From positions 18,231 through 82,230 of the forward strand of contig CAMYXL010000001.1 in NCBI GenBank assembly GCA_947303255.1: DNA of 64,000 nucleotides, in the 5' to 3' direction. The notes beneath the pieces are model-generated. The model searched no databases and had not been told where the DNA came from. It saw only the letters and a program-made list of their open reading frames with translations. Position numbers and translations under genes: made by a program. How positions within the stretch are numbered: position 1 is the stretch's first letter; every line of letters starts with the position of its first letter. Of the stretch, positions 24,343 to 59,592 are shown one piece after another. The DNA comes from an uncultured Clostridia bacterium (GTDB taxonomy: Bacteria > Bacillota > Clostridia > Saccharofermentanales > Saccharofermentanaceae).

Positions 24343-24495
24343 AAATACAGTTGATTCTCCCTGTTGCCAGGGAGCAAACACAGGATTTAAGGCTAAAATC
24401 CAGTATTCAGTCCCTGTTCAATAGGGATATAGCACTGGAGAATGAGTCAAAATCTATTTGATGATCCCTGTAGTCAGGGAGTGTTTACTGTATTT
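24343..24495. repeat. Array of three 46-47-bp palindromic units
   Basis: Consensus AAATMCAGT-N6-TCCCTG-N4/5-CAGGGA-N6-ACTGKATTT; units at 24343-24388, 24396-24442 and 24450-24495, joined by 7-bp linkers. Confidence 0.75.
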
Positions 24496-24504
24496 TCAAA
24501 AGCA

Positions 24505-24545
24505 CAAAAAAGAGGTTGTCTCAACATTTAAGTGAGACAACCTCT
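24505..24545 (-). terminator. Intrinsic terminator of the decarboxylase operon
   Basis: AGAGGTTGTCTCA-N9-TGAGACAACCTCT preceded by an A run on the + strand, i.e. a T tail on the - strand. Confidence 0.85.
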
Positions 24546-24575
24546 GTTATGTTGTAATATACGTGACTTTAGTTA

Positions 24576-25772
24576 TTACTTACCGAAGAGGCTCAAGAGA
24601 ACGCCTGCGGCAACTGCAGAACCGATAACACCTGCTACGTTTGGACCCATAGCGTGCATCAGCAGGAAGTTGGAAGGATTAGCCTTCTGGCCTTCCTTAT
24701 TAGAAACACGTGCTGCCATTGGAACAGCGGATACACCGGCTGAACCGATGAGCGGGTTGATCTTTCCGCCTGAAACTGCATACATAACCTGACCGATGAG
24801 AAGACCACCGATTGTGGAGAATGCGAAAGCGATAAGACCCAAGATGATGATCTTGATAGTATCGAACTTAAGGAAGTTAGCACCCTGAGCTGTAGCACCA
24901 ACCGTAACACCCAAGAAGATAGTTACGATGTTACACAGAGCATTCTGTGCTGTATCGGAGAGACGCTCTGTTACGCCGGACTCACGGAAGAGGTTACCGA
25001 GCATGAGCATTCCGAGGAGAGGACCTACAGAAGGGAGAAGGAGAGTACAGATAACTGTAACGATGATAGGGAAGCAGATCTTCTCTACCTTTGATACGTT
25101 TCTGAGCTGTTCCATCTTAACTTCACGCTGCTTCTTTGTTGTAAGGAGCTTCATAAGCGGTGGCTGGATCATTGGGATCAAAGCCATGTATGAATAAGCT
25201 GCGATAGCGATAGCAGGAAGGATCTCAGGAGCAAGCTTTGTTGTAAGGAAGATAGCCGTAGGGCCGTCTGCACCACCGATGATAGCGATGGAAGCTGCCT
25301 GGTTAGCTGTAAAGCCAAGGAGAGAAGCTACAACGAAAGCAAATGAGATACCGAACTGAGCACCTGCACCCATGAAGAGTGAGGAAGGACGAGCGATCAA
25401 TGGTCCAAAGTCTGTCATGGCACCGACTGCCATAAAGATGAGACAAGGGAAGATAGAAAGCTTAACTCCAAGATAGATGAAGTCAAGAAGTCCGACGCTT
25501 ATAGCACTGTCCATGCCCGCTTCTTTACCTGTACCGAGGAGTTCCCAGTGGATGTGTCCGCCGGAGAATATCTCTGGGTGATAAAGATCAGCGAGAGGAA
25601 GATTGCTCAAGAGCATACCGAATGCGATCGGAAGCAAGAGCAATGGCTCGAACTTCTTTCCGACTGCCAAATAGATGAGCACGAAGGAAAGAACGAGCAT
25701 GATGGCATTACGGATGTCGATGTTAGCGAATCCGGATGACTGCCACAAGTTCATTAATGCATCAATAAACAC
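24576..25772 (-). CDS. oadB: Na+-translocating decarboxylase beta subunit
   Basis: FEPLLLLPIAFG, IFPCLIFMAVGAMTDFGPL, IIGGADGPT, AYSYMALIPMIQPP, GVSAVPMAAR, HAMGPNVAGVIGSA. Confidence 0.96.
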   Translation of the reverse strand: MFIDALMNLWQSSGFANIDIRNAIMLVLSFVLIYLAVGKKFEPLLLLPIAFGMLLSNLPLADLYHPEIFSGGHIHWELLGTGKEAGMDSAISVGLLDFIYLGVKLSIFPCLIFMAVGAMTDFGPLIARPSSLFMGAGAQFGISFAFVVASLLGFTANQAASIAIIGGADGPTAIFLTTKLAPEILPAIAIAAYSYMALIPMIQPPLMKLLTTKKQREVKMEQLRNVSKVEKICFPIIVTVICTLLLPSVGPLLGMLMLGNLFRESGVTERLSDTAQNALCNIVTIFLGVTVGATAQGANFLKFDTIKIIILGLIAFAFSTIGGLLIGQVMYAVSGGKINPLIGSAGVSAVPMAARVSNKEGQKANPSNFLLMHAMGPNVAGVIGSAVAAGVLLSLFGK

Positions 25773-25787
25773 TTTTAAGGCCTCCTA

Positions 25788-26183
25788 TCAAGAAATACTT
25801 AAGAGGACGTCGCCTGTGTTTACGGAAGCACCCTTGGATGTGAGAACCTGAGCTACTGTACCGGAACATGGTGCGTAGATCTCGTTCTCCATTTTCATAG
25901 CTTCGAGGATGCAAACGAGGTCGCCTTCGTTTACTTTAGCGCCGACTGCAACCTTAACGTTAAGGATAGTGCCCGGCATTGGTGCTGTAACAGGAGTTGT
26001 ACCTGCCTGAGCTGTAGCAGCAGGAGCTGCAGCTGGAGCAGCGGCTGCAGGTGCGGCAGCAACAGGAGCTGCGGCAACAGGAGCAGGAGCTGCCGTAACG
26101 GTTGTGGTCTTAAGAAGATTAGCTTTGCCCTTCTCTACCTCAACCTCATATTCTTTATCGTTGATTGTAACTTTATAGATCAT
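25788..26183 (-). CDS. Biotin carboxyl carrier subunit of the decarboxylase
   Basis: Ala/Pro linker, VTAPMPG, biotinylation motif EAMKM. Confidence 0.93.
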
Positions 26184-26197
26184 TTGAGGTATCTCCT

Positions 26198-26578
26198 TTA
26201 CTTGTTCTCTACGAGAGTGATGGATTTGAATACGAGCTCAGAAAGAGGAATGCCCGTATTGTCGCTTACGATAGCCATGATCATAGCAGCTGTCTTCTCA
26301 TCGCAGCCCTTAAGCTTAAGGCTTCCGGAAGAGAACTCTTCCTCAGCAACAGGAGCTGCAGCAGCTTCAGTAGCAGCAGGCTTTGTACCTGCAGGCTCTT
26401 CCTTCTTGGAAGTTACCTTCTCGATACCGCCGATGATGAATGAGAAGATCTTGATCGCAACACAGATGAGCAAAAGGACACCGAAAACGACAGCAATGGT
26501 AAATCCGGCTACAGCAAGTGCCTCAGGCAATGTTGCCTGATCTGGACCTGTGAGCAGATAAACAGCATAGTTAGTCAT
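26198..26578 (-). CDS. oadG: Decarboxylase gamma/delta subunit (OadG family)
   Basis: Single TM ([14 protein letters not shown]), Ala/Pro linker, AAMIMAIVS segment; position within the operon. Confidence 0.85.
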
Positions 26579-26583
26579 TTATC

Positions 26584-27966: not shown

Positions 27967-28077
27967 AAAGTCACGCTCCTTATAATATAGTTATTTTTAA
28001 TAATAAACATTATTTCACCTATATGAGTATATTCAAATCCTCATTGGTTGTATAGTCAGAAAAACATGTTTTTTGTT

Positions 28078-28563
28078 TCATTTTTCTCCGAAACATGCCG
28101 TTATCTCATCAAGTATGTCTGACACCTTTGAAAGGAAGATTTCTTCTTTCGGAGCCTCCTCCTCGAAAAAGAGCATTATCGGAAGTCTGTCTTCCTTGGT
28201 AAAGAGCAGGAAGCAGGAGTTTTCGTTCCTTTTCGAGCGGTTCTTGGTATATGCCTGAAGATCACCGATTATTATGTCGATGGTGCTTTTCGAAAAGTCG
28301 TCCACAAACTCTTCCTTGGCCTTGAAAAGAAGTTGCTTTGCCTCAAGGACGGTCATCTTTGTGAGCTTGTCGTCTAAAACAGGGTTCATGTAAAAGTAGT
28401 CCATGACAGGGAAGAAGTCCTTGCCGCCGACCTTTACGGAGGATGAGTGCCTTACGACGTAGATGTCGCTGTCGGGTTTAAGTGTGCCGTCGTCAAGATC
28501 GGACTTAAGAGATTCCAGGATCTCCTCGTAATCGATGGAATCGTATGAAGTGGTTGAATTCAT
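28078..28563 (-). CDS. Hypothetical protein
   Basis: 161-aa ORF with RBS GGAGG before the ATG at 28563; no recognised motif. Confidence 0.6.
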   Translation of the reverse strand: MNSTTSYDSIDYEEILESLKSDLDDGTLKPDSDIYVVRHSSSVKVGGKDFFPVMDYFYMNPVLDDKLTKMTVLEAKQLLFKAKEEFVDDFSKSTIDIIIGDLQAYTKNRSKRNENSCFLLFTKEDRLPIMLFFEEEAPKEEIFLSKVSDILDEITACFGEK

Positions 28564-28616
28564 AAAAGTACCTCCGTATAATAAGTCAGTTCCCATTCTA
28601 CCCTCGAAAAATGGTG

Positions 28617-28645
28617 TTTACAACAAATACCTGAGGTGATAGAAT
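28617..28645 (+). promoter_or_regulatory. Sigma-A promoter of the str operon
   Basis: TTTACA-N17-TAGAAT with an extended TG at 28637-28638. Confidence 0.6.
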
Positions 28646-28725
28646 AAATTGCTCGCGGGAGAACTGCGCCCATTTTTTGCGCGCGTTTTTTCGAGAAGCC
28701 AAATAAAACGAAAGGAGAAGTATTG

Positions 28726-43657: not shown

Positions 43658-43975
43658 TTTTTCTGTCTCCTTTTTGTCCGCATCTACTCTATAGACACAT
43701 GACAAAAGAGATTTCTTGGGTGGTTCGAAAAAATTTTTACTCTTGGATTTTATCATCATTGCCGGAGCGTTGTCTAAACATATGTGGAAACGCGTTGCTG
43801 TTGCGAGCTTAGAAAGTGATCCGTAAGGCTTTAAATATCAAGGATATTTTGGTGAATATTGTCATTATATTGATTATAATGTGGGCAATTTCAGAAAGTT
43901 TTTTCGAGCAAATGAAACAAAAGGCATACCATTATCTGTCTATGATGAGTATCTAAAACGTATGAGGAGAAAACT

Positions 43976-47289: not shown

Positions 47290-47314
47290 TCGTAAGATCT
47301 AACGCTAACTATTT

Positions 47315-47344
47315 GGGGGAGCCTGAGCGGCTCCCTCATTTTTT
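47315..47344 (+). terminator. Intrinsic terminator
   Basis: GGGGGAGCC-tgagc-GGCTCCCTC followed by ATTTTTT. Confidence 0.75.
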
Positions 47345-47549
47345 GGACTTTTTTGGTGAGTCAGGCGGTTTTGGTCCAAGATTTCTTGGACCATTTGGTG
47401 CCCGGAACGTGTTTTGGTCCAAGTTTGATGCTGATCCGGCAAGGTGAAGGGGCAATTTGAACGGTAACTTGGACCAAATGGGTGAGAAGTGACGATTTGG
47501 TCCAAGAAAAGTTGGACCATTTTGCCTGCGCGGAGACATTTGGTCCAAG
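47343..47549. repeat. Array of four TTGGACCA-N21-TGGTCCAA inverted-repeat units
   Basis: Units at 47343-47379 (first core degenerate, TTGGACTT), 47386-47422, 47469-47505 and 47512-47548; gaps between units of 6, 46 and 6 bp. Confidence 0.8.
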
Positions 47550-47640
47550 AATGCCGTGAAGTTGTTATAGTTAAGCCGTTATTATATAATCTCGGTGTAA
47601 GTTCGCCGCCTTTTTCGAGCGGCAGGAAAAAGAGGTTAGT

Positions 47641-48567
47641 ATGAAAGCTGATTTGGATGAGAGGACGGAGTTTATCCGTAACGGTTCTCTTCACGCGGAT
47701 TTGCTCGATGTCAGTGATGACGGTCTGTTGCAGTACTTTGATCTTTACTGCGACCTTCATAAGGCGAAGACCATGCTGGGCGATGTGGATTATTCCATGG
47801 AGAAGTCCCTGGACCCTGAGAAGAAGCGCGTGGTGGACGTTAACCGCATCCTTCCGTATGATGACGCTGAATTCGTGAAGCTTTCGTACCTGGCGCTTTT
47901 CGGCAGGAAGGCTCTTGTGCGCGAAGTCGAAGAGACGCTTTATCTTTTTCGAAAAGGCGAGAGGAGCAAACTCGACATACTCCTTACAATGGCAGCATCC
48001 GATGAGGGCAGATATAAGAACGTGTCGCTCACGGGCATCGACACTGTCGGCGTGAACGAGCTCCTTAAGTTCGAGGACCGCGAGTTCATCCGCGTGGCAT
48101 ACGCGCTGATCTTCGCCAGAAGATCCGACATCGAAGGCGAGGAGCAGTACCTGAGAGTCCTAAGGGAGAAGGGTTCCACGAAGGCACAGATCTTGAAGAT
48201 GCTCAGAAATTCCGAAGAGGCGGATAAGATCGGCGTTACGATCACAGGCCTTGATGAAGCTGCCGCAGTGGCCCCGCAGGAGAAGAAGATCTACACGCTG
48301 CCTGTGATAGGCAAGATCGCGAGACTTCTCCGCGGCGTAAAAAATCTCAACGAAGACGTCAGGACGCTTAAGGCAAGCGACGTAAATATCTATGACAAGC
48401 TCAGCACCAGGATCGCGACGACAGACGATACCGTAAGGGAGCTGAAGTTCAACGACGAGCTCAAGCAGGAGAATATCCGCAACACGGACGCGAAGGTCTA
48501 TGAGCTTCAGAAGGAAGTAGACGAGCTCAAAAAGCAGATCGAGATCCTTACGAAGGAAAGCAGGTGA
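47641..48567 (+). CDS. DUF4214-like repeat protein with C-terminal coiled coil
   Basis: Two repeats (DDAEFVKLSYLALFGRKA, EDREFIRVAYALIFARRSD), the segment IYTLPVIGKIARLL, and a heptad-rich C-terminus; no signal peptide. Confidence 0.75.
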   Translation: MKADLDERTEFIRNGSLHADLLDVSDDGLLQYFDLYCDLHKAKTMLGDVDYSMEKSLDPEKKRVVDVNRILPYDDAEFVKLSYLALFGRKALVREVEETLYLFRKGERSKLDILLTMAASDEGRYKNVSLTGIDTVGVNELLKFEDREFIRVAYALIFARRSDIEGEEQYLRVLREKGSTKAQILKMLRNSEEADKIGVTITGLDEAAAVAPQEKKIYTLPVIGKIARLLRGVKNLNEDVRTLKASDVNIYDKLSTRIATTDDTVRELKFNDELKQENIRNTDAKVYELQKEVDELKKQIEILTKESR

Positions 48568-48571
48568 TCCT

Positions 48572-49087
48572 TTGAACATAGAAAGGATCGCTTCCTCTAA
48601 GCCCGTGAACGACATCATGGCGGACCTCATCGAATCGAAGGTCCTGAGTATCCTCGTTGACGAGAACATCTCATCCGACAATCTTAACAATATCCTCAAG
48701 GCCCTCTACATCTACATCTGCAGGGCCGATTACGAGATCATGCTCTACATGGTAAAGGACGGCAGTGAGCCGAAGGTCCTCGAGACCGCCACCGAGATGA
48801 GCCTCATGAGCAGCATCAAATACATCGACGGCGACGACGATCAGAAGATGCTGTCGTACCTTCTGTCCTGCGACATGATGATAACCGATAATGAATCTTC
48901 CGATCTTTTGTCTCTTTCTCGAAAACTCTATCTTCCGAGGATCGTCATAAAAGAAAACGGAAGCCTTAAGTTCGAGGACGGCATCCTCAAACTCAACAGT
49001 GATCCTGTTGATATCTGTTCCGCTTTTAAGCTCGTGAAGGATAAAGCTCACAGAGACGAATTAAGCGGACACAGAAGACTGGTGTGA
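48572..49087 (+). CDS. Hypothetical protein in the glycan cluster (possibly a GT-B C-terminal-like fold)
   Basis: TTG start with RBS GCAGGTG; CDMMITDNESS-like segment; tightly packed in the operon. Confidence 0.55.
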   Translation: MNIERIASSKPVNDIMADLIESKVLSILVDENISSDNLNNILKALYIYICRADYEIMLYMVKDGSEPKVLETATEMSLMSSIKYIDGDDDQKMLSYLLSCDMMITDNESSDLLSLSRKLYLPRIVIKENGSLKFEDGILKLNSDPVDICSAFKLVKDKAHRDELSGHRRLV

Positions 49088-49100
49088 AAGGGGTAAGAAG

Positions 49101-50144
49101 ATGAGAATTGCAATTGCTACAGTTCAGGTACCTTTCACCACAGGTGGCGCAGAGATACTTACCGGAATGCTCAAAGACGAGCTCATCAAGCGCGGACACA
49201 AGGCGGAGATCGTAAGCATTCCGTTCAAGTGGTATCCGTGGCAGTCTCTGGTTCAGTGCATGAACATGGGACGTCAGATAGATCTCACGGAAGCAAGCGG
49301 CGAGAAGATCGACAAGGTCATCGCCATGAAGTTTCCTGCCTACTACCTAAAGCACGACAACAAGGTCCTCTGGCTCATGCATCAGCACCGCCAGGCCTAC
49401 GACATGTGGGATACCGACTACAGCGACATCCGTAAGTGGGAAAACGGCGAGGAGATAAGAGACTTCATCCGCGACTGCGACAGAAAATACATAGGCGAAT
49501 GCAAAGGAAGGTTCACCATCTCCGGCAATACCACCGGAAGGCTCAAACACTTCCTAGGGATCGATTCGGAAGTTTTGTATCATCCTCCGAAGGATCACGA
49601 GAAACTTCACGCGGACGAATACGGCGACTTTATCTTCTATCCGAGCAGGATCACGCAGATAAAGAGACAAAGACTCCTGGTCGAAGCAGCACGCTACACC
49701 AAGACCGGTGTTAAGGTCGTGATCGCAGGCGGCGGAAGCGAAGAAGAGATCTCTTATCTTAAGGAGAAGATCGCCGAATATAAATTGGAAGACAAAGTAA
49801 AGCTCGCGGGATTTATCTCCGATGAGGAGAAGATCGATATGTATGCCAAGTGCCTCGGCGTATATTTTGGCGCCTATGATGAGGACTACGGATATATAAC
49901 TCTCGAAGCATTTTTCTCCGAGAAACCTGTCATCGTCCATAAGGATGTAGGCGGACCTCTCGAGTTCGTAAGAGACGGCGAGAACGGATTTGTGATCGAT
50001 GCGGATCCGAAGGTGATCGCGGAGAAGATGGACAGACTTTTCGAGCAGAAAGAAGAAGCAAAGAAACTCGGCACATGCGGCAAGCAGACCCTGCTTAACA
50101 TGAACATGGACTGGGATTACGTAATAAAGAGACTGTTGGAATGA
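49101..50144 (+). CDS. GT4 glycosyltransferase
   Basis: VPFTTGGAE, PSRITQIKRQRLLVEA, EDYGYITLEAF, GGPLEFV. Confidence 0.9.
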   Translation: MRIAIATVQVPFTTGGAEILTGMLKDELIKRGHKAEIVSIPFKWYPWQSLVQCMNMGRQIDLTEASGEKIDKVIAMKFPAYYLKHDNKVLWLMHQHRQAYDMWDTDYSDIRKWENGEEIRDFIRDCDRKYIGECKGRFTISGNTTGRLKHFLGIDSEVLYHPPKDHEKLHADEYGDFIFYPSRITQIKRQRLLVEAARYTKTGVKVVIAGGGSEEEISYLKEKIAEYKLEDKVKLAGFISDEEKIDMYAKCLGVYFGAYDEDYGYITLEAFFSEKPVIVHKDVGGPLEFVRDGENGFVIDADPKVIAEKMDRLFEQKEEAKKLGTCGKQTLLNMNMDWDYVIKRLLE

Positions 50145-50155
50145 GGAGAAGCTAA

Positions 50156-51322
50156 GTGACAAAACCTACTTTACTATACGGCAGCCCGTTCGCTCCGAAG
50201 ATGAGCGGAATCTCCGATTATTCGGTGATCCTGGTTAATGCGCTTTCTGAGTTCTTTGACGTGACGCTCTATACCGATAACTACGAGATCGAGGCTTCTG
50301 ACGTTAAGGATTTTAAGGTGCTGAAGCACGGCGTGGACGAGATCGACTTCGACTCTTTTGACTACCGTCTCTATAACATGGGCAATAACGCAGAGTACCA
50401 CATCTACATCTACGATGCGGCAGTGGAGCACCCGGGCGCGCTTATCATGCACGACCTTTCCATCTGCGACTTTATGCAGGGATATATCAAGGCCAAGGGT
50501 TATCCGTATTATTCGTACATCTATGAGAACTTCGGCCTGGAGGCTTTTACGATCCTTAAGGAAGCGAAGATCGACAAGACTTTCGGCAAGGGCATCGTGT
50601 CGAAGCTCATGCTTAACGACGGGCTTCTTAAGTCAGGCAACAAGATAATCGTTCACTCGGATTATTCGAGAAACAAGATCCTGGAGACGGGACTTGTAAG
50701 TGAAGATAAGATCAGAAAGATCAAGATGATCGAGCAGATAAAGACAGGGGAGGAGTTCATCCCGAAGGCCGATCTCATCAGTAAGTTCAAGATCCCTGAA
50801 GACGCGGTGATCATCTGCGCTTTCGGATTCGCGAGCGACTTTAAGTTCAATGTGGAGACTGCCCGTGCGGTCAAGGAACTTAACAGGGAACTTGATAAGA
50901 AGCTGTGCTACGTCATGGTCGGATCAGGTAACTACGCTGACGAAGAGATCAAGGAAGGCGAAGTTATCAAGACGGGCTTTACGACTATCGAGGAGTTCAA
51001 CAGCTTCGTTAACTGCGCCGACATTATCGTTAACTTAAGATATCCGCCGCTGGGTGAGACTTCAGGTTCCATGTTAAGGATCCTGCAATTAGGTAAGCCG
51101 TGTATCACCAATAACGGCGGCTGGTTTTCTGAGATCCCTGACGACACCGTTATCAAGATCTCAGTCGATAACGTCGAGCAGGAACTTAAGATGACACTTA
51201 AGGAACTTGTAACTGATCCCGAGAAGGCGAAGGATGTGGGTGACAATGCTGCGGCGTACATCAGGGAGAACCACGGGAAAAGTCTCATAGCTAAGGAGTT
51301 TTACGATTATCTCACGAGATGA
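50156..51322 (+). CDS. GT4 glycosyltransferase
   Basis: SPFAPKMSGISDYS, YNMGNN..H, LRYPPLGETSGS, GKPCI. Confidence 0.87.
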   Translation: MTKPTLLYGSPFAPKMSGISDYSVILVNALSEFFDVTLYTDNYEIEASDVKDFKVLKHGVDEIDFDSFDYRLYNMGNNAEYHIYIYDAAVEHPGALIMHDLSICDFMQGYIKAKGYPYYSYIYENFGLEAFTILKEAKIDKTFGKGIVSKLMLNDGLLKSGNKIIVHSDYSRNKILETGLVSEDKIRKIKMIEQIKTGEEFIPKADLISKFKIPEDAVIICAFGFASDFKFNVETARAVKELNRELDKKLCYVMVGSGNYADEEIKEGEVIKTGFTTIEEFNSFVNCADIIVNLRYPPLGETSGSMLRILQLGKPCITNNGGWFSEIPDDTVIKISVDNVEQELKMTLKELVTDPEKAKDVGDNAAAYIRENHGKSLIAKEFYDYLTR

Positions 51323-51331
51323 TTTGATATA

Positions 51332-52366
51332 ATGAGCATAATGAATAAAAGTGATATCGACATCGTCATATACTGGGTCGACGGATCCGACGAGAAGTGG
51401 CTTTCGAAGAAGGCTTCTTATTCACCTGCTTCAAATACTGACATGTCCGCTGCCAGATACAGGGATACCGAGACATTGAAGTATACCTTTAGGGGCATAG
51501 AGAAGTTCATGCCATGGGTAAATAATGTTTATTTTGTTACCGATGAGCAGCTTCCGGATTGGCTCAACAAAGAGGCTCCGAACCTTAAGCTCGTCGACCA
51601 CAAGGACTTCATCCCGCACGAGTATCTTCCTACTTTCAGCGCCAACCCTATAGAACTGAACTTTCACAGGATCGCGGGTCTTAATGAGAAGTTCATCGTG
51701 TTCAACGATGACTTCATTACGACTGCGCCGACTAAGCCGGAGGACTTCTTTATCGACGGCAAGCCGAGAGATATCTTCATGGAATATCCGATCATGTGCG
51801 GCGGCAAGACCCCTGTGTTCTCGTCGCTTTTGACCAATACATATAATCTGATCGGAAAGCATTTCGACAGGAGCGATTATAAGAAGAGACTTAAGTCCAA
51901 GATCCTGTCATTTAAGTACGGCAAGTACTATTTCTATAATCTCATGATGTACATGATGCCGTTCCCGAAGTTCTTCGGACTTCTGACGCCTCACTTCGCG
52001 AGACCTTATCTCAAGTCGACATTCGAGAAGGTCTGGAAGGAGGAGGGCGATGCTCTCGACAAAGTCTGCCACAACAGGTTCAGGTCGAGCGAAGATATCA
52101 ATATCTACGCCATGCGCCTGTGGAACCTCATGGAGGGCAACTTCGTTCCGGGCAATATCCACAAGGACGGCAAGGCGTACCTTCTGACGAGCATTGAAGA
52201 TACGAAGGCAGCCGCATCCGAGATAAAGAGCAGCAGGCGTAAGCTCATCTGCATCAACGACAACCTGGAAGAGAAGGATTTTGACGAGGCCAAGAAGATA
52301 TTCCTGGGCGCTCTGGAAGAGATCTTACCTGAGACTTGTGTTTTCGAAAAAGGTGAGAAAAGATGA
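51332..52366 (+). CDS. Stealth-family hexose-1-phosphate transferase
   Basis: CR1 IDIVIYWVDGSD; CR2 LKYTFRGIEKFMPW and DHKDFIP..LPTFSANPIE..FNDD; CR4 ICIND. Confidence 0.9.
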   Translation: MSIMNKSDIDIVIYWVDGSDEKWLSKKASYSPASNTDMSAARYRDTETLKYTFRGIEKFMPWVNNVYFVTDEQLPDWLNKEAPNLKLVDHKDFIPHEYLPTFSANPIELNFHRIAGLNEKFIVFNDDFITTAPTKPEDFFIDGKPRDIFMEYPIMCGGKTPVFSSLLTNTYNLIGKHFDRSDYKKRLKSKILSFKYGKYYFYNLMMYMMPFPKFFGLLTPHFARPYLKSTFEKVWKEEGDALDKVCHNRFRSSEDINIYAMRLWNLMEGNFVPGNIHKDGKAYLLTSIEDTKAAASEIKSSRRKLICINDNLEEKDFDEAKKIFLGALEEILPETCVFEKGEKR

Positions 52367-53370
52367 GCGAACCCAAGGTCTCGATAATCATAGCTGTCTA
52401 CAATACCGAGAAGTACCTCAAGGACTGCATCGAATCAGTCCTTTCCCAGGACTACGAAAACATCGAGCTGTTCCTGGTGGACGACGGCAGCACCGACGGA
52501 TCTCCTGCCATCATGGATTCCTATGTGGAGAAATATCCGTCCAAGGTCGTCAAGCTCACCAAGGAGAACGGCGGTCAGGCATCCGCGAGAAATCTCGCAC
52601 TGGATAAGATCTCCGGCGAATATCTGACATTCATGGATTCCGACGACTACATCGCCAAGGACTACATAAGGACCCTCATCACTGAGGCGGCCGCGCACGA
52701 TGCCGACATGGTCGCATCGGGCCAGTTCAAGGTTGGCGAGGACGGCCATATCATCGACACCATCCGCTATAAGGTTACCGACGGCAAGTCGCTTCAGAGG
52801 CGTCTTAATATCGCGGGCAAGCTCTACAGGACCGAGTACGTCAGAAGGTTCAATATCAAGTTCCCGGAAGGCAAGCTCTACGAGGATAATTCTTTCAACT
52901 TCCTGGCGTTCTTCCTAAGCCCGAACGTTAGGATCCTTCCTTACGAGGGCTACAACCAGGTGGTCCACGAGGGCAGCACGACAGCTAAACTGATCGACCA
53001 CAAAAAGCTCCCGTTCGACAACTGGAGCTACTGCATAAGGACAGTCAAGGAAAAGGCCGTCCCTGGCGTTGACATGGACCTTTTCGACATCACGGTCCTG
53101 AGTTTTTTCACGTATTTTCTCATCATCCGCAACAGGAAAAGGGAGTACCTTCCGAACGAGGACCGCCAAAACTCCATGGACAATGCCTATGCCATCTCCG
53201 ACATGTTCGAAAACATGACCAACGAGTTTTTCGGAGACTTCAAGAAGAATAAATACAGGAGTCTTTTCTCGGGGCTCCCGCTGAAGCAGGTCCTGGGCGT
53301 CCGCGTTTTTTATTCATACGCATCGAGGAAAAAACTTCGAAAACTTGTTAAAATGTTGTATCGATTCTAA
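52363..53370 (+). CDS. GT2 glycosyltransferase
   Basis: VSIIIAVYN, VDDGSTDGS, NGGQASARN, FMDSDD, YED. Confidence 0.92.
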   Translation: MSEPKVSIIIAVYNTEKYLKDCIESVLSQDYENIELFLVDDGSTDGSPAIMDSYVEKYPSKVVKLTKENGGQASARNLALDKISGEYLTFMDSDDYIAKDYIRTLITEAAAHDADMVASGQFKVGEDGHIIDTIRYKVTDGKSLQRRLNIAGKLYRTEYVRRFNIKFPEGKLYEDNSFNFLAFFLSPNVRILPYEGYNQVVHEGSTTAKLIDHKKLPFDNWSYCIRTVKEKAVPGVDMDLFDITVLSFFTYFLIIRNRKREYLPNEDRQNSMDNAYAISDMFENMTNEFFGDFKKNKYRSLFSGLPLKQVLGVRVFYSYASRKKLRKLVKMLYRF

Positions 53371-53382
53371 TGAGGTCCGGCC

Positions 53383-54429
53383 ATGAGATACTATGTCACA
53401 GAAAGAGAGTTTGACGAATACGACAGCGTCACCGCCCGCGCCAAGGCAAGGGATGATGCTGAATCGATCGTGAAGGAACTGGGTTACATGCCTATCGTTA
53501 TCGACGTGCCGGACAGATCTTCCTTCAGCATTCCCCGTAAGATCTGGTGGCAGATAAGGATCGTCCCTGTATGGGTCAGGAATCTTAAGCAGGTCACAAA
53601 GGGCGACGAGCTCTTTATCCAGTTCCCGTTCAGGGAGCATTCTGTCTTTCTTCCTCTTGTTCTTCGAAAAAGCAGGAAGAAGGGCGTCAGGATCGTCATG
53701 CTCGTTCACGACTTTGAACTTTTCAGAGCCCTCAAGGACAGTGGGAAAACTATTTTCGATAAGGTAAAGAATTACTTTGATGCAAAGAGCCTTAAGTATG
53801 CGAGCAAGGTCATCCTCCATAACGATAAGATGATCAAGGCGGCCAAAGAGAAGGGCTTAAGCGAACTTCGCCTTATAGACCTTCAGATATTCGATTATCT
53901 TACGGACGCGCCGATCTCCGGTAAGCGCGGTCTTAACGAGCCTTTGATCGTGGCAGGTAATCTCATGAGAAGCAAGTCCGGATACCTCTACGAACTTCCG
54001 TCCGACCTTAAGATCAATCTCTACGGTCCGGGCTACGAAGGCGAGGCGACGGATAATATCAACATCATGGGTGCTTTCCCGCCTGAGGAACTTCCGGGTA
54101 AGCTCGAAGGAAGCTTCGGTATCGTCTGGGACGGTCCGACCGCAGCGACCTGCGACGGCGTTTTCGGAAAGTACCTTACTATCAATAATCCTCATAAGAC
54201 GTCGCTTTATCTCGCGTCAGGTCTTCCGGTCATCATCTGGAAGGAAGCGGCCCTGGCGGATTTCATCGTCAAGAACGGCCTGGGGATCGCGGTCAACAGC
54301 CTAAGCGAGATACCTATGAGACTTAAGTCCATGAGTGAAAGCGACTATAACAAAATGGTCGCCAATACAAAGGACATTAGTGGCAAATTACGAACAGGTT
54401 TCTTTCTGAAAAAAGCACTCAAAGAGTAG
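53383..54429 (+). CDS. Galactofuranosyltransferase-like glycosyltransferase (WbbI/Gtf3-type)
   Basis: ARAKARDD, LVHDFE, FDYL, AGNL, FGIVWDG, YLTINNPHKTSLYLASGLPVIIW. Confidence 0.8.
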   Translation: MRYYVTEREFDEYDSVTARAKARDDAESIVKELGYMPIVIDVPDRSSFSIPRKIWWQIRIVPVWVRNLKQVTKGDELFIQFPFREHSVFLPLVLRKSRKKGVRIVMLVHDFELFRALKDSGKTIFDKVKNYFDAKSLKYASKVILHNDKMIKAAKEKGLSELRLIDLQIFDYLTDAPISGKRGLNEPLIVAGNLMRSKSGYLYELPSDLKINLYGPGYEGEATDNINIMGAFPPEELPGKLEGSFGIVWDGPTAATCDGVFGKYLTINNPHKTSLYLASGLPVIIWKEAALADFIVKNGLGIAVNSLSEIPMRLKSMSESDYNKMVANTKDISGKLRTGFFLKKALKE

Positions 54430-54457
54430 ATTATTTATGCTATAATTCATTCTGTTT

Positions 54458-55669
54458 ATGAGTGAGAGTATTAAACAGAAACAAAGAAGTATATTCAAAG
54501 TTAACTTATTGGGGATAGGCAGCGGACTTTTGATATTCTTTACGCTGTGCGCGTTTGTGACCGCAATTGCGCTTATCCTTCTGTTTATGTTCCACGGTTT
54601 TTCCGACACCATCATCGATTACGGCAGGATCATTGCAGGCATCGCTTTGTTCGAGAACCCGTTCCTTTGGGCGGGAATACTTCTCATCTACATGTCATCC
54701 GCTTATCTTGATTTTAATTCCAAGGTCATCGGCGCACTTTGCTGCCTCGTACCTATCGTTCATTTTGCGGTCCTGGTCCTGATCCTCAAGGTCAGCATCC
54801 GCGAGTACAGAAACGAGAAGATGAGACTCGCACTTCAGGAAACAGGCGCGGTATCAGACGTATGCGGCACCAAGTACCCGATCCTTCTGATCCACGGAAT
54901 CTTCTTCAGAGACTTCCAGGCACTGAGTTATTGGGGCCGTATTCCTTATTATCTCGAAAAAAACGGCGCAAAGATCTTCTACGGCGATCACGAATCCTGT
55001 GAGAACGTCGAAAAGAGCGCAGAAGATATCGCAGCAAGGATCCGCGAGATCGTTGAGACAACTGGCTGCGAGAAAGTCAACATCATCGCACATTCCAAGG
55101 GCGGCCTTGACGTTAAGTATGCTGTTGCAAAGATGGGCATCGAGAAGCATGTCGCTTCGATAACGACCATCAGCACACCTCACTACGGCTGTGAATATGC
55201 AGACTATTTCCTCGGACTTATCCCTGGTAAGGCTAAGCCTGTTCTCTCATACATCGCCAATTCCATTTTCAAAAGACTCGGCGACCGTAACCCGGACGTT
55301 CTTTCCGCAGTTGAGGAATTGACTGTCGAGAGATGTCTTGAACTTAACCGTGAGACTTCCGACTTCGATTTGGAGGCCAACGGCATCTACACCCAGAGCT
55401 TCGGATCAGGCTTAAGATACGGCAGGAGCGGCATTCTTCCTCTGGATCTGTTCTGCAGGGTAGTCGACAGATTTGACGGTCCGAACGACGGTCTTGTCGG
55501 ACTTGCTTCATTCCGTTGGGGCGAGAAATATACGCTTCTTGATAACGGCAGGAGAAGAGGAATCTCCCACGGCGATATGATCGACATCACCAGAGACAAG
55601 GTTCCGGGTTTTGATGTTTGCTCATTTTATATCGATCTTGCCAGCAATCTTCGTTGCAGAGGTCTTTAA
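54458..55669 (+). CDS. Membrane-anchored triacylglycerol lipase-like alpha/beta hydrolase
   Basis: Three N-terminal TM segments, YPILLIHG, YWGRIP, nucleophile AHSKGG, TPHYG, NDGLV, ISHGD. Confidence 0.85.
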   Translation: MSESIKQKQRSIFKVNLLGIGSGLLIFFTLCAFVTAIALILLFMFHGFSDTIIDYGRIIAGIALFENPFLWAGILLIYMSSAYLDFNSKVIGALCCLVPIVHFAVLVLILKVSIREYRNEKMRLALQETGAVSDVCGTKYPILLIHGIFFRDFQALSYWGRIPYYLEKNGAKIFYGDHESCENVEKSAEDIAARIREIVETTGCEKVNIIAHSKGGLDVKYAVAKMGIEKHVASITTISTPHYGCEYADYFLGLIPGKAKPVLSYIANSIFKRLGDRNPDVLSAVEELTVERCLELNRETSDFDLEANGIYTQSFGSGLRYGRSGILPLDLFCRVVDRFDGPNDGLVGLASFRWGEKYTLLDNGRRRGISHGDMIDITRDKVPGFDVCSFYIDLASNLRCRGL

Positions 55670-55730
55670 ACTTTACTCCTAAATGTGTAAAATACTACAA
55701 GATGAACAGTTTGATGGGAGAAGTGTTTCT

Positions 55731-56423
55731 TTGATCGGTTATTATGACTACACAGTTTGGCTGACGTATTGCTCACTGATTTCGGCAGGAATCGGTATCT
55801 TCAGCTCCCTTAGTGGCGGCGGCCACCCGTATATCGGAATGTTCTTCCTTCTTTTATCCGGACTTTGCGACGCTTTTGACGGCAAGGTTGCCAGGACCAA
55901 GAAGAACAGGACAGAGATGCAGATCGATTTTGGTATCCAGATCGATTCTCTTGCCGACCTTGTAGCCTTCGGAGTTCTTCCTGCCAGCATCGGCGTCAGT
56001 ATGCTCCGCATCTTCGATCACACATGGGGATTCCATCCGAGAACAGCATCAACGCTTCTCGTTCACCTTGCTCTTTATACCGTTTTGGTATTCTACGTTC
56101 TTGCAGCACTTATTAGACTTGCTTACTTTAACGTTCTCGAAGCTCAGAGAAGAAGAGACGGCGGTACAGGCGCCAACAAGGAATACAGAGGTCTTCCTGT
56201 TACGTCCGCTGCTCTTTTGTTCCCGACAGTGCTTCTCGTTCAGTACGCAACTTCTATCGATATCACGTTCACTTATTTCGCTACGATACTCGTTACGGGT
56301 ATTCTCTTCATCACCCCGTTCAAGCTTAAGAAGCCGGGTACCAGAGATATCCTCATCATGGTCGGTATCGGCGCACTTGAACTTGCTGCTCTCATCGTTA
56401 TGAAGATCATTGCCCGCAGGTAA
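55731..56423 (+). CDS. pssA: CDP-diacylglycerol--serine O-phosphatidyltransferase
   Basis: CDP-alcohol phosphotransferase motif DAFDGKVAR...FGIQIDSLADLVAFG and YRGLP; adjacent to psd. TTG start at 55731 after GGGAG (the ORF extends to 55683). Confidence 0.85.
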   Translation: MIGYYDYTVWLTYCSLISAGIGIFSSLSGGGHPYIGMFFLLLSGLCDAFDGKVARTKKNRTEMQIDFGIQIDSLADLVAFGVLPASIGVSMLRIFDHTWGFHPRTASTLLVHLALYTVLVFYVLAALIRLAYFNVLEAQRRRDGGTGANKEYRGLPVTSAALLFPTVLLVQYATSIDITFTYFATILVTGILFITPFKLKKPGTRDILIMVGIGALELAALIVMKIIARR

Positions 56424-56434
56424 GGAGTCCGACA

Positions 56435-57280
56435 TTGCCCCAGCCACCGATCAAGATCCAACCCGACAGCAAGAGTTTGCGATTCCTCTATAAGAACCCA
56501 ATCGGAAGAGTATTCCTTAAGCTTTTGTGCGCTCCTTGGCTTTCCAAGGTCTGCGGCGCATATCTTTCTTCGTCTTTTTCGAGACCTTTGATCAATTCTT
56601 TTGTTCGAAAAAACGGTATCGACATGTCCCAGTATGAGAACCGTCCGTACCACGATTTCAACGATTTCTTTACCCGTAAGATAAATCCCGAACTTCGTCC
56701 GGTGGACATGGATCCTGAGGCTTTTGTCGCACCTTGCGACGGCCTTCTTACGGTTTTCCCGATCGACAAGGACACGGTGCTTCCTGTTAAGCAGAGCAAC
56801 TACAAGATCACTGATCTTCTTGATTCTCCTGAAGAAGCGAAAATGTTCGAAGACGGCATCTGCCTTGTCTTCAGACTCTGCGTCGATCATTATCACAGAT
56901 ATTTCTTCTTTGATGACTGCGAAGTCGGAAAGCCTCAATTCATTAAGGGCAAACTTCACACGGTCCGTCCGATAGCTCTTGAGACGGAGCATGTTTTCAC
57001 GACAAACAGCAGGGAGAAGACACTTCTTAAGACCAGGAACTTCGGTAACGCCATGCAGGTCGAAGTCGGCGCCATGCTCGTCGGCAAGATCAAGAACCAC
57101 GACATCTCTTCAGCCAAAAGAGGCGATGAGAAGGGCATGTTCCTTTACGGCGGCTCCACAGTCATCCTCCTTCTCGAAAAAGACCGCGTCAATCTTTACG
57201 AGGATTTTTTCAGGAATTCTTCAGAGTATGCCGAGACTCCTGTCAAGTTCGGCGAGAAGCTCGGCGAAATTTGCCGATGA
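56435..57280 (+). CDS. psd: Phosphatidylserine decarboxylase proenzyme
   Basis: FNDFFTRK, APCDG, DHYHR, EVGAMLVGKI, self-cleavage motif GGST. Confidence 0.92.
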   Translation: MPQPPIKIQPDSKSLRFLYKNPIGRVFLKLLCAPWLSKVCGAYLSSSFSRPLINSFVRKNGIDMSQYENRPYHDFNDFFTRKINPELRPVDMDPEAFVAPCDGLLTVFPIDKDTVLPVKQSNYKITDLLDSPEEAKMFEDGICLVFRLCVDHYHRYFFFDDCEVGKPQFIKGKLHTVRPIALETEHVFTTNSREKTLLKTRNFGNAMQVEVGAMLVGKIKNHDISSAKRGDEKGMFLYGGSTVILLLEKDRVNLYEDFFRNSSEYAETPVKFGEKLGEICR

Positions 57281-57334
57281 CTTTTTCGCGTGAGCATATA
57301 TAATATATAACGATTTTAATTTTCAGAGGTTATT

Positions 57335-58261
57335 ATGATCTTCAATAATATTCTTGAGGCGATGGGAAGCACTCCGCTCGTCAAACTATCGAAAATGGTC
57401 GGTCCTGACAGCGCGAGGATCCTCGTTAAGGTCGAGGGCCTGAACGTCGGAGGTTCCATCAAGACCAGAACAGCATATAACATGATCAGGGCTGCCGAGG
57501 AAAAAGGCCTTATCAACGAGAACACCATAATTGTTGAGCCGACCAGCGGCAACCAGGGTATCGGCCTTGCTCTCGTCGGAGCAGTAAGAGGCTATAAGAC
57601 TATCATCATCATGCCTGACTCCGTCAGCGAAGAGAGAAAGAAACTTGTTGAGCACTACGGCTCTCAGGTTATCCTGATCCACGACGCAGGCAACATCGGT
57701 GCTTGTATCGAAGAGTGTCTCCAGACTGCTCTTAGGATGCAAAGGGAAGATCCGAATGTCTTCGTTCCGCAGCAGTTCGAGAATCCTGCCAATCCTGCAG
57801 TTCACAAGAAGCAGACAGGTATCGAGATCTTAAACCAGGTTGACGGACATATCCACGGTTTCTGCTCCGGTATCGGAACAGGAGGAACCATCACGGGTAT
57901 CGGTGAGGTGCTTAAGTCTGAGAACCCGGATATCGAGATCTGGGCTGTAGAGCCTGAGCACGCGGCTATCCTTTCAGGCGGTTCCATCGGAACACATCTT
58001 CAGATGGGAATCGGCGACGGCGTAATCCCGAAGATATTGAATCAGGATATCTACAACGATATCTGCATCGTAAAAGACGAAGAAGCTATCCAGGCAGCCA
58101 AAGACCTGGCTTCCAAGGAAGGCATCATGTGCGGTATCTCAAGCGGAACCAATGTGGCAGCTGCTTTGAAGCTCGCCAAGAAACTGGGCCCGGGCAAGAC
58201 GGTGGTAACGGTCCTTCCGGACACAGCCGAGAGATACTTCTCGACACCGCTTTTTGACTGA
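57335..58261 (+). CDS. cysK: Cysteine synthase A
   Basis: GSTPLV, GSIKTR (PLP lysine), PTSGNQG, QQFENPAN, GIGTGGT, GISSG. Confidence 0.93.
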   Translation: MIFNNILEAMGSTPLVKLSKMVGPDSARILVKVEGLNVGGSIKTRTAYNMIRAAEEKGLINENTIIVEPTSGNQGIGLALVGAVRGYKTIIIMPDSVSEERKKLVEHYGSQVILIHDAGNIGACIEECLQTALRMQREDPNVFVPQQFENPANPAVHKKQTGIEILNQVDGHIHGFCSGIGTGGTITGIGEVLKSENPDIEIWAVEPEHAAILSGGSIGTHLQMGIGDGVIPKILNQDIYNDICIVKDEEAIQAAKDLASKEGIMCGISSGTNVAAALKLAKKLGPGKTVVTVLPDTAERYFSTPLFD

Positions 58262-58268
58262 TAATATC

Positions 58269-58301
58269 ACGGCACGTCCAACGATCCGGGCGTGCCGTTT
58301 T
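58269..58301 (+). terminator. Intrinsic terminator
   Basis: ACGGCACGTCC-N8-GGGCGTGCCGT-TTT. Confidence 0.7.
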
Positions 58302-58424
58302 GCAATTTGAAAACAAAATAGAATAAACTATTTGCAAGCCTGAGATATATACACCCTTAGCTTAAATGTTAGAATTATACCGTAAGTTTAAAGCTTGTTT
58401 CTTTATACGTTATGGAGTAAAAAA

Positions 58425-59315
58425 ATGACAAACATCAAGATTCATCAGTGCCCGTCCTGCGGCGGCAATCTCACCGTAGACAACGACAGACAAATGTATC
58501 ATTGCTCTTTCTGCGGCAGCTCTTTCGATTATGAGTATTTTCGAGAAGAACAGGCTCATGAGATGGGCGAGAAATACTTAAGCAGAGGCGAGTATGCCGC
58601 AGCTATCGATCTTTATAAGTTCGTATTGGATAAGAATCCGCATGATTTTATTTCTCTCAGGGGTCTGATGCTCGCGTCGGCACGCCTGAAGGAGATGAAG
58701 GAACTGACCTCCAAAGTCGGCACTGAAGGTTTCTCATATGACACAAAGCAGGTTGATTTCATCTGCGGCAGTGCTTCTCCGGATGACAAAGAATATTTTG
58801 ACGGTATGTCAAAGATTTATTCCGATATTAAGTCCGTCTCGGCCCTGGTCGAAGAGCAGAATGTTCTTCGTAAGGAAAAGAGGAGGATCGAGGACAAGAT
58901 CCATCTCGAGCTCAAGAGCCGTGAAGAGTGCAGTGTCAAAGACAGATACGGAACCGGACATGATCCGATAAAGGCTTTTATAGCGATGACCGCTATCTGC
59001 GGATTTTTCCTTCTGGTAATCCTCGTCCTGGTGATAGTAGGACTTTTTACGGAAGATTGGGTAGTCGGAATCGGTTTTATGCTCCTTCTTCTGGCGGTCC
59101 CGTTGACAATCATCGATTTTTTGATAGTATTCCCGCGCTTCAAGAAGGCAAGGGAGATCGATGCCAGGATCGGTAAATACGGCATCGAGTCCGGCAAGCG
59201 TCAGAGAAGGATCAACGAGCTGGGCGAGCTGATCGACAAGGAGTCTTCAGCCATCAAGCATGCGTGCTCCGACCTTATGAAGAAGGACACAAAGATCATG
59301 AATGAACTCAAATAA
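58425..59315 (+). CDS. Hypothetical protein: Zn-ribbon, helical/coiled-coil region and two TM segments
   Basis: CPSCGG...CSFCG at the N-terminus, a TPR-like helix pair, a coiled coil and two hydrophobic segments. ATG at 58425 after GGAG. Confidence 0.65.
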   Translation: MTNIKIHQCPSCGGNLTVDNDRQMYHCSFCGSSFDYEYFREEQAHEMGEKYLSRGEYAAAIDLYKFVLDKNPHDFISLRGLMLASARLKEMKELTSKVGTEGFSYDTKQVDFICGSASPDDKEYFDGMSKIYSDIKSVSALVEEQNVLRKEKRRIEDKIHLELKSREECSVKDRYGTGHDPIKAFIAMTAICGFFLLVILVLVIVGLFTEDWVVGIGFMLLLLAVPLTIIDFLIVFPRFKKAREIDARIGKYGIESGKRQRRINELGELIDKESSAIKHACSDLMKKDTKIMNELK

Positions 59316-59320
59316 TATAA

Positions 59321-59345
59321 GTGACTGTCTCATTGAGGCAGTCAC
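59321..59345. terminator. Hairpin after the hypothetical gene
   Basis: GTGACTGTCTC-att-GAGGCAGTCAC. Confidence 0.6.
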
Positions 59346-59360
59346 TAAATATTTGTAGGA

Positions 59361-59592
59361 ATACTAACCTGATCGGTCTTTTTTGTAAATAAGGTTAGTA
59401 TAAATCGGTCTTACAAATAATCGAGTACTAACCCTTTTTTCGAAAACATGCATGATGGTAAGTGTTTTTCTACATGATCGAAAATAAAATACTAACCTAA
59501 AACGCGATAATTGCCATATTGATTAGTACGACTTCAGATTTCCGGCGAAATATACTAACCTTTTGGCAGATTTTCACGATTTTGATCAGTAC
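59361..59592. repeat. Phased array of four 63-64-bp units, each TACTAACC-N23-GGTTAGTA
   Basis: Forward cores at 59362, 59426, 59490 and 59553; reverse cores at 59393, 59457, 59521 and 59584 (the last three degenerate). Confidence 0.75.

Follow-up and report, generated by a model that had tools for sequence, protein, structure and literature searches.

Intergenic arrays of short conserved cores behind terminators in an uncultured rumen Clostridia bacterium: candidate clusters of operator-like sites

The window analysed here, a 64-kb stretch of chromosomal DNA (about 46% GC; contig CAMYXL010000001.1) from an uncultured rumen Clostridia bacterium, carries three intergenic arrays, beginning at 24343 (array 1), 47343 (array 2) and 59361 (array 3), in which short palindromic or inverted cores are separated by spacers of variable sequence. 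The three had been put forward in an original prediction made from the letters of the window; all are confirmed at those positions, and k-mer clustering against shuffles marks them as non-random. The cores of array 2 are constrained across three genomes while its spacers diverge, and many further arrays, each with a private core, are found in related genomes, as expected from the prediction that the design recurs. We tentatively favour, with slightly less than even confidence, the reading that the arrays are clusters of operator-like sites on double-stranded DNA for putative oligomerising, sequence-specific proteins. Protein binding, the identity of the binder and any regulatory effect are what we infer from the DNA.

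Cores and spacers of the three arrays

A blind scan for clustered k-mers returned 18 clustered 7-mers, against 0.5 in shuffles, and its strong non-genic clusters were the three arrays, which also take up the three longest internal gaps between genes; the CtsR operator surfaced in the 8- and 9-mer scans. Seven of the eight copies of TGGTCCAA and five of the six copies of TACTAACC in the window lie inside arrays, and outside its own array each core occurs about once in the 64 kb, which is chance level. Each array begins just behind a terminator hairpin (Table 1), as had been predicted. The number of palindromic units, given in the original prediction as three to four, holds for arrays 1 (three) and 3 (four); array 2 is richer, with seven full sites and a partial one. 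The sites themselves are built differently, as a 16- to 17-bp palindrome in array 1, a 9-bp palindrome in array 2 and half-sites 31 bp apart in array 3. To speak of one grammar was therefore too strong: with three different site architectures, and with array 1 lacking a promoter, the arrays are a recurring design and not a demonstrated single system.

For array 2, the claim that selection acts on core and geometry but not on the spacers could be addressed directly, by three-way alignment of the window with RUI342 (GCA_024699245.1), a metagenome-assembled genome (MAG) that is the nearest named relative and is 96-98% identical to the window over most of the shared region, and with the yak-omasum MAG RGIG9768; identities are relative to the window. 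Core positions (nine per site) are 95% and 89% identical in the two relatives, against 69% and 56% for the spacers (Fisher p ~2e-5 and ~4e-6), and the claim stands. GGWCC is intact at 7/7 full sites in all three genomes and the outer TT/AA is sometimes changed, a graded conservation, strict in GGWCC and looser outside it, that is typical of a protein motif. Moreover, the central W flips among the genomes, leaving both neighbouring site pairs of RGIG9768 non-complementary at the centre; thus, the kept feature is the word and not hairpin pairing, which is not required. The spacers are positionally homologous across the three genomes and, for that reason, were not acquired. Spacing of the GGWCC cores (15, 28, 55, 28, 15 and 28 bp) resolves the array into two 126-bp super-units with spacers of 5-46 nt, and the array ends 12 bp from the -35 box of the operon promoter. 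The test of core against spacer conservation is confined to array 2; an all-against-all blastn of the ctsR slots discussed below matched coding flanks only.

Array 2 is also polymorphic. It is absent from strains in which the first protein of the operon, a DUF4214 protein, is 83% and 53% identical; the 83%-identical strains retain the promoter, and more distant strains carry a divergent TetR gene there instead. A low-depth variant has lost exactly one 126-bp super-unit (47413-47538), with contigs joining 47412 to 47539, and in another strain unrelated upstream DNA is joined at 47549, directly after the last core. A restriction-modification motif is unsupported for GGWCC, a word that is not avoided in the window (72 copies observed, ~82 expected). 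A lone GGTTAGTA, the core of array 3 reversed, occurs at 47634-47641, overlapping the ribosome-binding region and the start codon of the first operon gene, and is most likely a coincidence, because it is kept in relatives without array 3.

For array 3 the evidence of selection on the core is indirect and consists of four perfect cores among unrelated spacers, with all population variants falling in the spacers. The left arms are perfect in all four units; the right arm is degenerate in three of them (GGTAAGTG, GATTAGTA and GATCAGTA), with changes that are neither compensated nor G-U compatible. The eight spacers, 23-25 nt long, are mutually unrelated (alignment scores at null level). In population contigs, 5/5 single-nucleotide polymorphisms and 2/2 insertions or deletions within the array lie in spacers, a confinement that is only suggestive, as the cores make up 28% of the array and the chance probability is roughly 1 in 10. 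The array is nearly identical in a related locus, L099. A co-existing population variant lacks the 244-bp segment bounded by the direct repeats GTCTTTTTTG, together with the left arm of hairpin T2; its joint, 59375>59620, is seen in runs X16 and X17 (sheep and cattle metagenomes; depth 9.4 vs 14 and 3.9 vs 6), so that this deletion allele stands at ~40% of depth beside the full form in two metagenomes. Downstream lies a classical class III heat-shock locus, in which the promoter and CtsR operators (59657-59757) are followed at 59782-64000 by ctsR (GTG start at 59782), mcsA, mcsB and the beginning of clpC. CtsR operators are tandem heptads, (A/G)GTCAAA-N3-4-(A/G)GTCAAA, at class III heat-shock promoters; array 3 was rejected as such an operator, the CtsR boxes lying outside the array and the core TACTAACC being unrelated to them.

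Array 1 is set between two convergent genes and both their terminators, and its units hold the palindromes CTCCCTG-ttgc-CAGGGAG, TCCCT-N7-AGGGA and TCCCTG-tagt-CAGGGA, with TCCCTG starting at 24358, 24411 and 24465 and with spacers of ~37 nt. Because the TCCCTG hexamer alone is common (54 copies in 64 kb), the case for this array rests on the palindromes and on the homology of the 53-bp units. As a whole the array has dyad symmetry, its ends resemble terminal inverted repeats (AAATACAGT...ACTGTATTT), and it folds into one long hairpin (-63 kcal/mol, z = -7 vs shuffles). The terminator upstream of it holds ACAGGGAC, the complement of the unit B core, and shares an 8-mer with a core. Array 1 is ~97% identical in RUI342 and absent from relatives with 95% and 90% identical oxaloacetate decarboxylase beta-subunit (OAD-beta) proteins, in which other DNA fills the gap. 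In one of the latter (L017, OAD-beta 90% identical), the region downstream of OAD-beta (11240-12235) holds an IS3-like orfA between direct repeats TTGAAGTGAACCCCCAAAGTTGGACAGAC; after orfA come an 11-bp tandem (GCACTAAGATG-like) and then a AGCAAGAAGTTCATCA-N16-GATGAACTTTCTGCTG array of 61-bp period that reaches the contig end.

Table 1. The arrays of the window with the terminators, promoters and repeats around them
Feature	Position	Strand	Remarks
Terminator hairpin of DUF624/MusI-like gene (22747-24261)	24304..24332	+	Inverted repeats
Array 1: three ~53-bp units, TCCCTG...CAGGGA palindrome in each	24343..24495	.	Units 24343-24381, 24395-24435, 24450-24488
Terminator hairpin of oxaloacetate decarboxylase beta-subunit gene (24576-25772, -)	24504..24552	-	Inverted repeat; Pfam OAD_beta
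Terminator of 703-aa DUF4214 gene; T-tail enters first partial site TTGGAC	47314..47338	+	Conserved in three genomes
Array 2: one partial and seven full TTGGWCCAA 9-bp palindromes	47343..47549	.	Full sites 47371, 47386, 47414, 47469, 47497, 47512, 47540
Promoter TTGTTA-17-TATAAT of 11-gene DUF4214/glycosyltransferase/phospholipid operon (47641-58261)	47562..47590	+	Sigma-70-type; 100% identical in three genomes
Hairpin T1 after zinc-ribbon/membrane protein gene (58395-59315); weak T-tail	59320..59346	+	Inverted repeat
Array 3: four 63-64-bp units, TACTAACC-N23-GGTTAGTA-like-N24/25	59361..59592	.	Left cores 59362, 59426, 59490, 59553; right cores 59393, 59457, 59521, 59584
244-bp segment between 10-bp direct repeats GTCTTTTTTG (59376-59385, 59620-59629)	59376..59629	.	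Missing in co-existing population variant
Terminator-like hairpin T2 (CTGAGGG...CCCTCAG + T7), between array 3 and ctsR promoter	59606..59650	+	Position equals that of the single terminator of array-less relatives
ctsR promoter TTGACA-17-GATAAT (59683-59711) flanked by CtsR heptad operators (59657-59678, 59725-59757)	59657..59757	+	CtsR Pfam domains in downstream gene

Recurrence, turnover and gene context

Related loci are given L numbers. A metagenome scan with CtsR gave 79 loci, and in ~15 of these an array, with its own core in each, precedes ctsR directly or precedes a small stress-protein gene that lies before ctsR. The cores include TCTACCT (L071), TCCCGC (L033), CGTTTCA (L036), TACCGAC-N25-GTCGGTA (L052), TAAGTAA with GAGTTAC (L061), GTACTCT (L041), GTACCTATAAA (L043), GGCCGTAA (L077), TTAAGC (L030, as TTAAGC-N6-TTAAGC), TTCACC (L056), TGTACAGG (L058), GGTCCTCTGTTT (L044) and AATGGGGA (L038). 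At the slot of array 3 itself, RUI342 has a different array (core GTACAGT), the MAG L010 a third (AGTAACCCTA, six copies), and L011 and L088 none, the terminator there abutting the CtsR box. Within one clade whose members share the flanking genes, slot length ranges from 19 to 475 bp, arrays being found in the long versions. Arrays are rare in the other gene gaps within these +/-4-kb flanks, and the ctsR slot is many-fold richer. A leader shared by array starts was rejected, TTTTTGCTCTTC being found only in L008 and L010, and nothing relevant to such arrays near ctsR or in Clostridia was found in the literature.

The geometry is shared to a degree that the cores are not. Same-strand steps over ~20 arrays cluster at 11-13 bp (18/69), 42, 50-55, 60-64, 72-75 and 126 bp, units are mostly 53-75 bp, and in 18 independent arrays the unit period is close to an integer multiple of 10.5 bp (V-test p ~2e-5; best fit 10.5). 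Such common step and unit lengths point to a common architectural constraint, or to a common generating mechanism, across unrelated cores. A frequent layout in relatives is two direct copies followed by two inverted copies, and ~8 of their arrays contain direct pairs at 11-13 bp. The 5-6-nt spacers of the mirrored pairs in L071 and L033 are not complementary, which argues against selection for hairpins.

In L041 (3440-3800), at least six (~7) tandem units of ~54 bp, each with GTACTCT and a GTACC-N7-GGTAC palindrome, lie upstream of ctsR, and this array looks young because identity between its units is much higher than in the window arrays. In L044 (3700-3830) the words are ordered A-B...A'-B' (GTCCTC, CTGTTT ... 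GAGGAC, AAACAG) and not A-B...B'-A', an order with which a simple hairpin is impossible. In L079 (3600-3880) the right arm of the terminator (GGGAGTTCTCT) is found three times over ~200 bp upstream of ctsR, as duplicated terminator arms. A TGTACAG-type core occurs at the ctsR slot of two distant genomes, in L008 (15985-16232; TTGTACAGT/ACTGTACA) and in L058 (490-550; TTTGTACAGG/CCTGTACAAA), and may reflect either a shared binder or convergence.

Presence and absence among strains, which the original prediction had proposed as a check, was looked at and gave array-less strains as well as deletion and copy-number variants. The window arrays occupy a single locus in the contigs of four metagenomes that hold the genome at 4-16x; in runs X8-X11 the organism is hardly present, and these runs are uninformative for array 1. 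Plasmid and phage collections gave no blastn match to the arrays. An element with the core ATGTAATGGTCAATGT, 115-140 bp long with terminal inverted repeats of 14-19 bp and an internal period of 62 bp, is present in L093, absent from the 98.5%-identical L079, and found in a different gene gap in L080, L081 and L085. Among these last three the whole element shows ~2 differences over ~125 bp, vs ~18 over ~145 bp in the flanks (counted by eye from the alignment). The L093 insertion shows no clean target-site duplication and lies in a flank that is locally divergent too, so that the element may have been imported by recombination.

Labels among the closest homologues include 'Clostridia bacterium' and 'Clostridiales bacterium', and among more distant ones 'Saccharofermentanaceae bacterium'. 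Gene content around the arrays is unremarkable, with genes for xylan/arabinan utilisation, a Na+-translocating decarboxylase operon, rpsL-rpsG-fusA-tuf, two two-component systems, an apparent extracytoplasmic-function (ECF) sigma/anti-sigma fusion, the 11-gene DUF4214/glycosyltransferase/phospholipid operon and ctsR-mcsA-mcsB-clpC; the neighbours of the arrays are, by Pfam or annotation, DUF624, OAD-beta, DUF4214, zinc-ribbon membrane protein and CtsR genes. No Cas, Nop-domain, HUH/RAYT, transposase, recombinase or integrase gene was found among the window genes scanned or listed, and no nuclease gene lies near the arrays. Relative to RUI342, 45305-47500 and 58580-59320 are only 64-89% identical, with 45305-46483 unalignable. 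These regions are the gene for the 703-aa DUF4214 protein and, of the zinc-ribbon membrane-protein gene, the 3' half; they adjoin arrays 2 and 3 and look like recombined or hypervariable surface-protein alleles. Such local divergence (64-89% identity vs 96-98% elsewhere) points to import of divergent alleles by recombination around the two arrays. A 538-aa protein (42143-43759, -), encoded 4 kb upstream of array 2, has an ECF sigma-70 domain at its N terminus followed by a long C-terminal extension and looks like a sigma/anti-sigma fusion. The decarboxylase operon has coding tandem repeats (GCAGCAGCTGGAGC-like, and CAG runs) at 26009-26093 and 26344-26379, inside its biotin-carrier and gamma-subunit genes, where a low-complexity linker is probably encoded.

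Operator-like clusters and competing explanations

If the arrays are operator-like, each would be a cluster of sites on double-stranded DNA, the short core being the recognition element, and the binders would probably differ between arrays; of the mechanisms offered in the original prediction, several DNA-binding specificities is the one that the evidence favours. The spacers would only set distance and helical phase, and could therefore drift freely. Arrays 2 and 3 each separate a terminator from the sigma-70 promoter that follows (of the envelope-glycopolymer operon and of ctsR-mcsA-mcsB-clpC) and may serve as upstream modules, regulatory or insulating, that are optional and lineage-specific; the promoters are retained in strains without the arrays. 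Array 1 is built alike but has no promoter to act on, and would be the least explained of the three. Position speaks for operators, with array 2 ending 12 bp upstream of a -35 box and ~15 arrays directly upstream of the ctsR promoter or of the small stress-protein gene. So do the graded conservation and flipping centres of the array 2 cores, the perfect left arms of array 3, the geometry shared by unrelated cores, and the array of L080, L081 and L085, which as a whole varies less than its flanks.

A number of points weigh against operators. Local regulators are usually encoded beside their targets, and no DNA-binding gene was found beside any of the three arrays; a global regulator is not indicated either, because the cores do not recur elsewhere in the 64 kb. 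At least 12 unrelated cores at the ctsR slot would require many binders, or one with unusually fast-changing specificity, and eight near-perfect sites exceed ordinary bacterial operators. No promoter was found beside array 1. Selection need not be the cause of core conservation, which templated correction between complementary arms could in principle produce instead, and helical phase is inseparable from a preferred ~62-bp unit, because 9/18 arrays have units of 60-64 bp. Finally, the RNA negative that supports a reading at the DNA level rests on contig depths of 2-8x.

The main rival, possible if on the unlikely side, is that we are dealing with tandem-palindrome DNA, either selfish or without function. 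Short sequences by terminator hairpins would be duplicated, direct or inverted, via replication slippage or template switching, after which templated (quasi-palindrome) correction would keep the cores alike while the spacers decay, in a terminator-promoter gap that tolerates such DNA. This would account for the start of all arrays right behind a terminator hairpin, for the 8-mer that the array 1 terminator has in common with the core and for the duplicated terminator arms in L079, and it agrees with the gain and loss of arrays between near-identical genomes (L093 vs L079, 98.5%), with repeat-bounded deletion and unit-number variants in populations, with the location of arrays in locally divergent, recombined segments, and with locus-private cores that have no binder gene nearby. 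Arm-to-arm correction does not, however, predict a core that is constant in three lineages, graded, and non-complementary at its pair centres, as in array 2, and the perfect left and decayed right arms of array 3 are the opposite of arm homogenisation. Moreover, it is not obvious how mutation would give unrelated cores a common 11-13-bp step and ~62-bp unit, and the excess of arrays in the ctsR slot over other gaps of the same flanks also speaks against this rival. Quite unlikely, in our view, is descent from miniature or decayed mobile elements (units like miniature inverted-repeat transposable elements, MITEs, or arm remnants of integrative elements), whose cores would be transposase or integrase/excisionase sites and which, moved by enzymes acting in trans, would have inserted preferentially behind terminators or upstream of ctsR. 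A layout of tandem 10-12-bp steps in mirrored sets is similar to that of integrase arm-type or Xis sites. The ATGTAATGGTCAATGT element, present or absent between near-identical loci and located in another gap elsewhere, behaves as a mobile unit might; the terminal inverted repeats and single-hairpin fold of array 1, the precise absence from some cells of the 244-bp array 3 segment with its 10-bp direct repeats, and the array beside IS3-like orfA in L017 point the same way. Against this, the window arrays stay at one locus in the four metagenomes (4-16x), and the 244-bp deletion leaves the first core of array 3 in place, which fits slippage better than excision. The L093 insertion lacks a clean target duplication and its divergent flank suggests import of an allele by recombination; there is also no transposase or integrase gene in the window and no plasmid or phage match. 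The recombinase or HUH specificities suggested in the original prediction are not supported, on the same grounds, no such gene being present in the window and the arrays being single-locus.

That the arrays act as RNA, whether as multi-hairpin small RNAs or protein sponges, as stabilisers in 3' untranslated regions or as guide-like processed arrays, is highly improbable. A good terminator (T2) follows array 3, the unit lengths are CRISPR-like, the site pairs of array 2 resemble small terminator hairpins, and all three regions fold better than shuffles (z -7, -5.2 and -3.8), although good folding is a trivial consequence of inverted cores. No RNA contig covers any array in four to five rumen metatranscriptomes, a weak negative at a depth of only 2-8x, while ctsR mRNA is seen there in contigs that start at 59706-59746, consistent with the ctsR promoter. 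No promoter was found before the arrays, arm changes are non-compensatory and mirrored spacers non-complementary. Rfam 15 gave zero window matches at gathering thresholds (best sub-threshold scores 18-23 bits vs cut-offs of 31-90). The proposal of processed guide-like RNAs is further weakened by the geometry, which is neither that of TIGR nor that of CRISPR arrays, and by the spacers of array 2, which are homologous between strains and hence not acquired.

An undescribed system of rumen Saccharofermentanaceae-like Clostridia, in which one oligomeric DNA-binding family or programmable binder of fixed architecture (11-13-bp step, ~62-bp unit) and fast-diversifying specificity would be served by arrays with private cores at favoured positions, the ctsR promoter for example, is unlikely. 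In any event, if the cores are protein sites, they would be lineage-specific regulatory inputs into the ctsR-clpC stress operon and an envelope-polysaccharide operon of uncultured rumen bacteria, and the ctsR slot would offer ~15 natural module variants, alike in geometry but not in word, and hence a test bed for the co-evolution of specificity and site. If instead they are self-maintaining palindromes, a mutational process would build regular arrays behind terminators and could pass for selection on short motifs, so that motif discovery and finders of CRISPR-like arrays in metagenomes would have to reckon with it. Under either reading, natural deletion and copy-number alleles exist for comparison.

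Comparison with known repeat and operator systems

No known repeat family fits the arrays. CRISPR arrays consist of near-identical direct repeats of ~23-47 bp and unrelated spacers of similar size, which are acquired independently and hence replaced from strain to strain, and orphan arrays without cas exist. The window arrays are like them in their regular interspersion of conserved and variable segments, and a ~62-bp unit approximates a CRISPR repeat plus spacer. CRISPR is nevertheless ruled out by cores of only 6-9 bp in both orientations, by Tandem Repeats Finder, which reports no array at the three sites, by the homology of the array 2 spacers (56-69%) and by the lack of cas genes among the window genes scanned or listed. 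TIGR arrays have two alternating repeats of 8-12 nt with spacers of 9-12 nt (36-nt unit), or stem-loop units with box C/D motifs, and are followed by a terminator, with an adjacent tas gene that encodes a Nop-domain protein (PMC12045711). Array 3, followed by T2, shares the terminator with them (PMC12045711). TIGR-Tas was rejected on the window spacers (23-25, 5-46 and ~37 nt), on units of 53-126 bp vs 36 nt, and on the lack of a Nop-domain neighbour. TIGR arrays are also transcribed, with processing into RNAs of unit length; over the window arrays no RNA contig was seen, at a depth of only 2-8x.

REPs are units of 20-40 nt with one consensus and hundreds of dispersed copies, tied to a RAYT gene in Enterobacteria. 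Like REPs and BIMEs, the arrays are palindromic units that alternate in orientation, with linkers of set length, in intergenic DNA after terminators, and could have structural or insulating roles; unlike them, their cores are 6-9 bp long and private to one locus within the 64 kb, and they are single-locus in the four metagenomes, so that REP/BIME was rejected for the window arrays. No RAYT or other Y1/HUH gene occurs in the window. As regards MITEs, the terminal-repeat-like ends of array 1 come without a duplication and the 10-bp direct repeats of the 244-bp array 3 segment exclude the first core; in copy number, the window arrays are single-locus, and the ATGTAATGGTCAATGT element of relatives is at two loci, with an empty site in L079. 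Integron attC sites and CALIN (R''/R' boxes of the form RYYYAAC...GTTRRRY, with paired L boxes) were also rejected: TACTAAC/GTTAGTA misses 1-2 positions per box (by eye), the other cores are unrelated, and there is no integrase gene. STAR repeats of Staphylococcus aureus are short GC-rich direct repeats with variable spacers of ~40 bp and strain-variable copy number. The arrays share with them the short core, the variable spacers, the intergenic location and unit-number variation at the strain level, but STAR is one core at many loci in direct repeats only, whereas here each array has a private core and inverted copies. Iteron and partition arrays of plasmids (R1 parC, F sopC, the omega sites of pSM19035) adjoin rep or par genes. 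They too have many copies of a short word, direct or inverted, at helical-turn spacing, and combine fast sequence divergence with stable geometry; the window arrays differ in being chromosomal, beside housekeeping and stress genes, with no par or rep gene and no plasmid or phage match.

Clustered operators include the direct-repeat boxes of OmpR/PhoB-type regulators, in which a 6-7-bp word is repeated in direct orientation at a distance of about one helical turn (10-11 bp), and the SinR sites at the B. subtilis eps promoter, a multi-site repressor operator. Several arrays of relatives, for example that of L030, likewise have two direct 6-7-bp words 11-13 bp apart; the window arrays contain no direct pairs at this distance, and OmpR/PhoB-type boxes were rejected for them. 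The window arrays differ from clustered operators in having 4-8 near-perfect sites in regular 53-126-bp units, a locus-private core and no adjacent regulator gene, and in that cores vary among related genomes at one slot. They resemble clustered operators in their short words, direct and inverted, set at fixed spacing with free sequence between them, upstream of sigma-70 promoters of envelope and stress genes.

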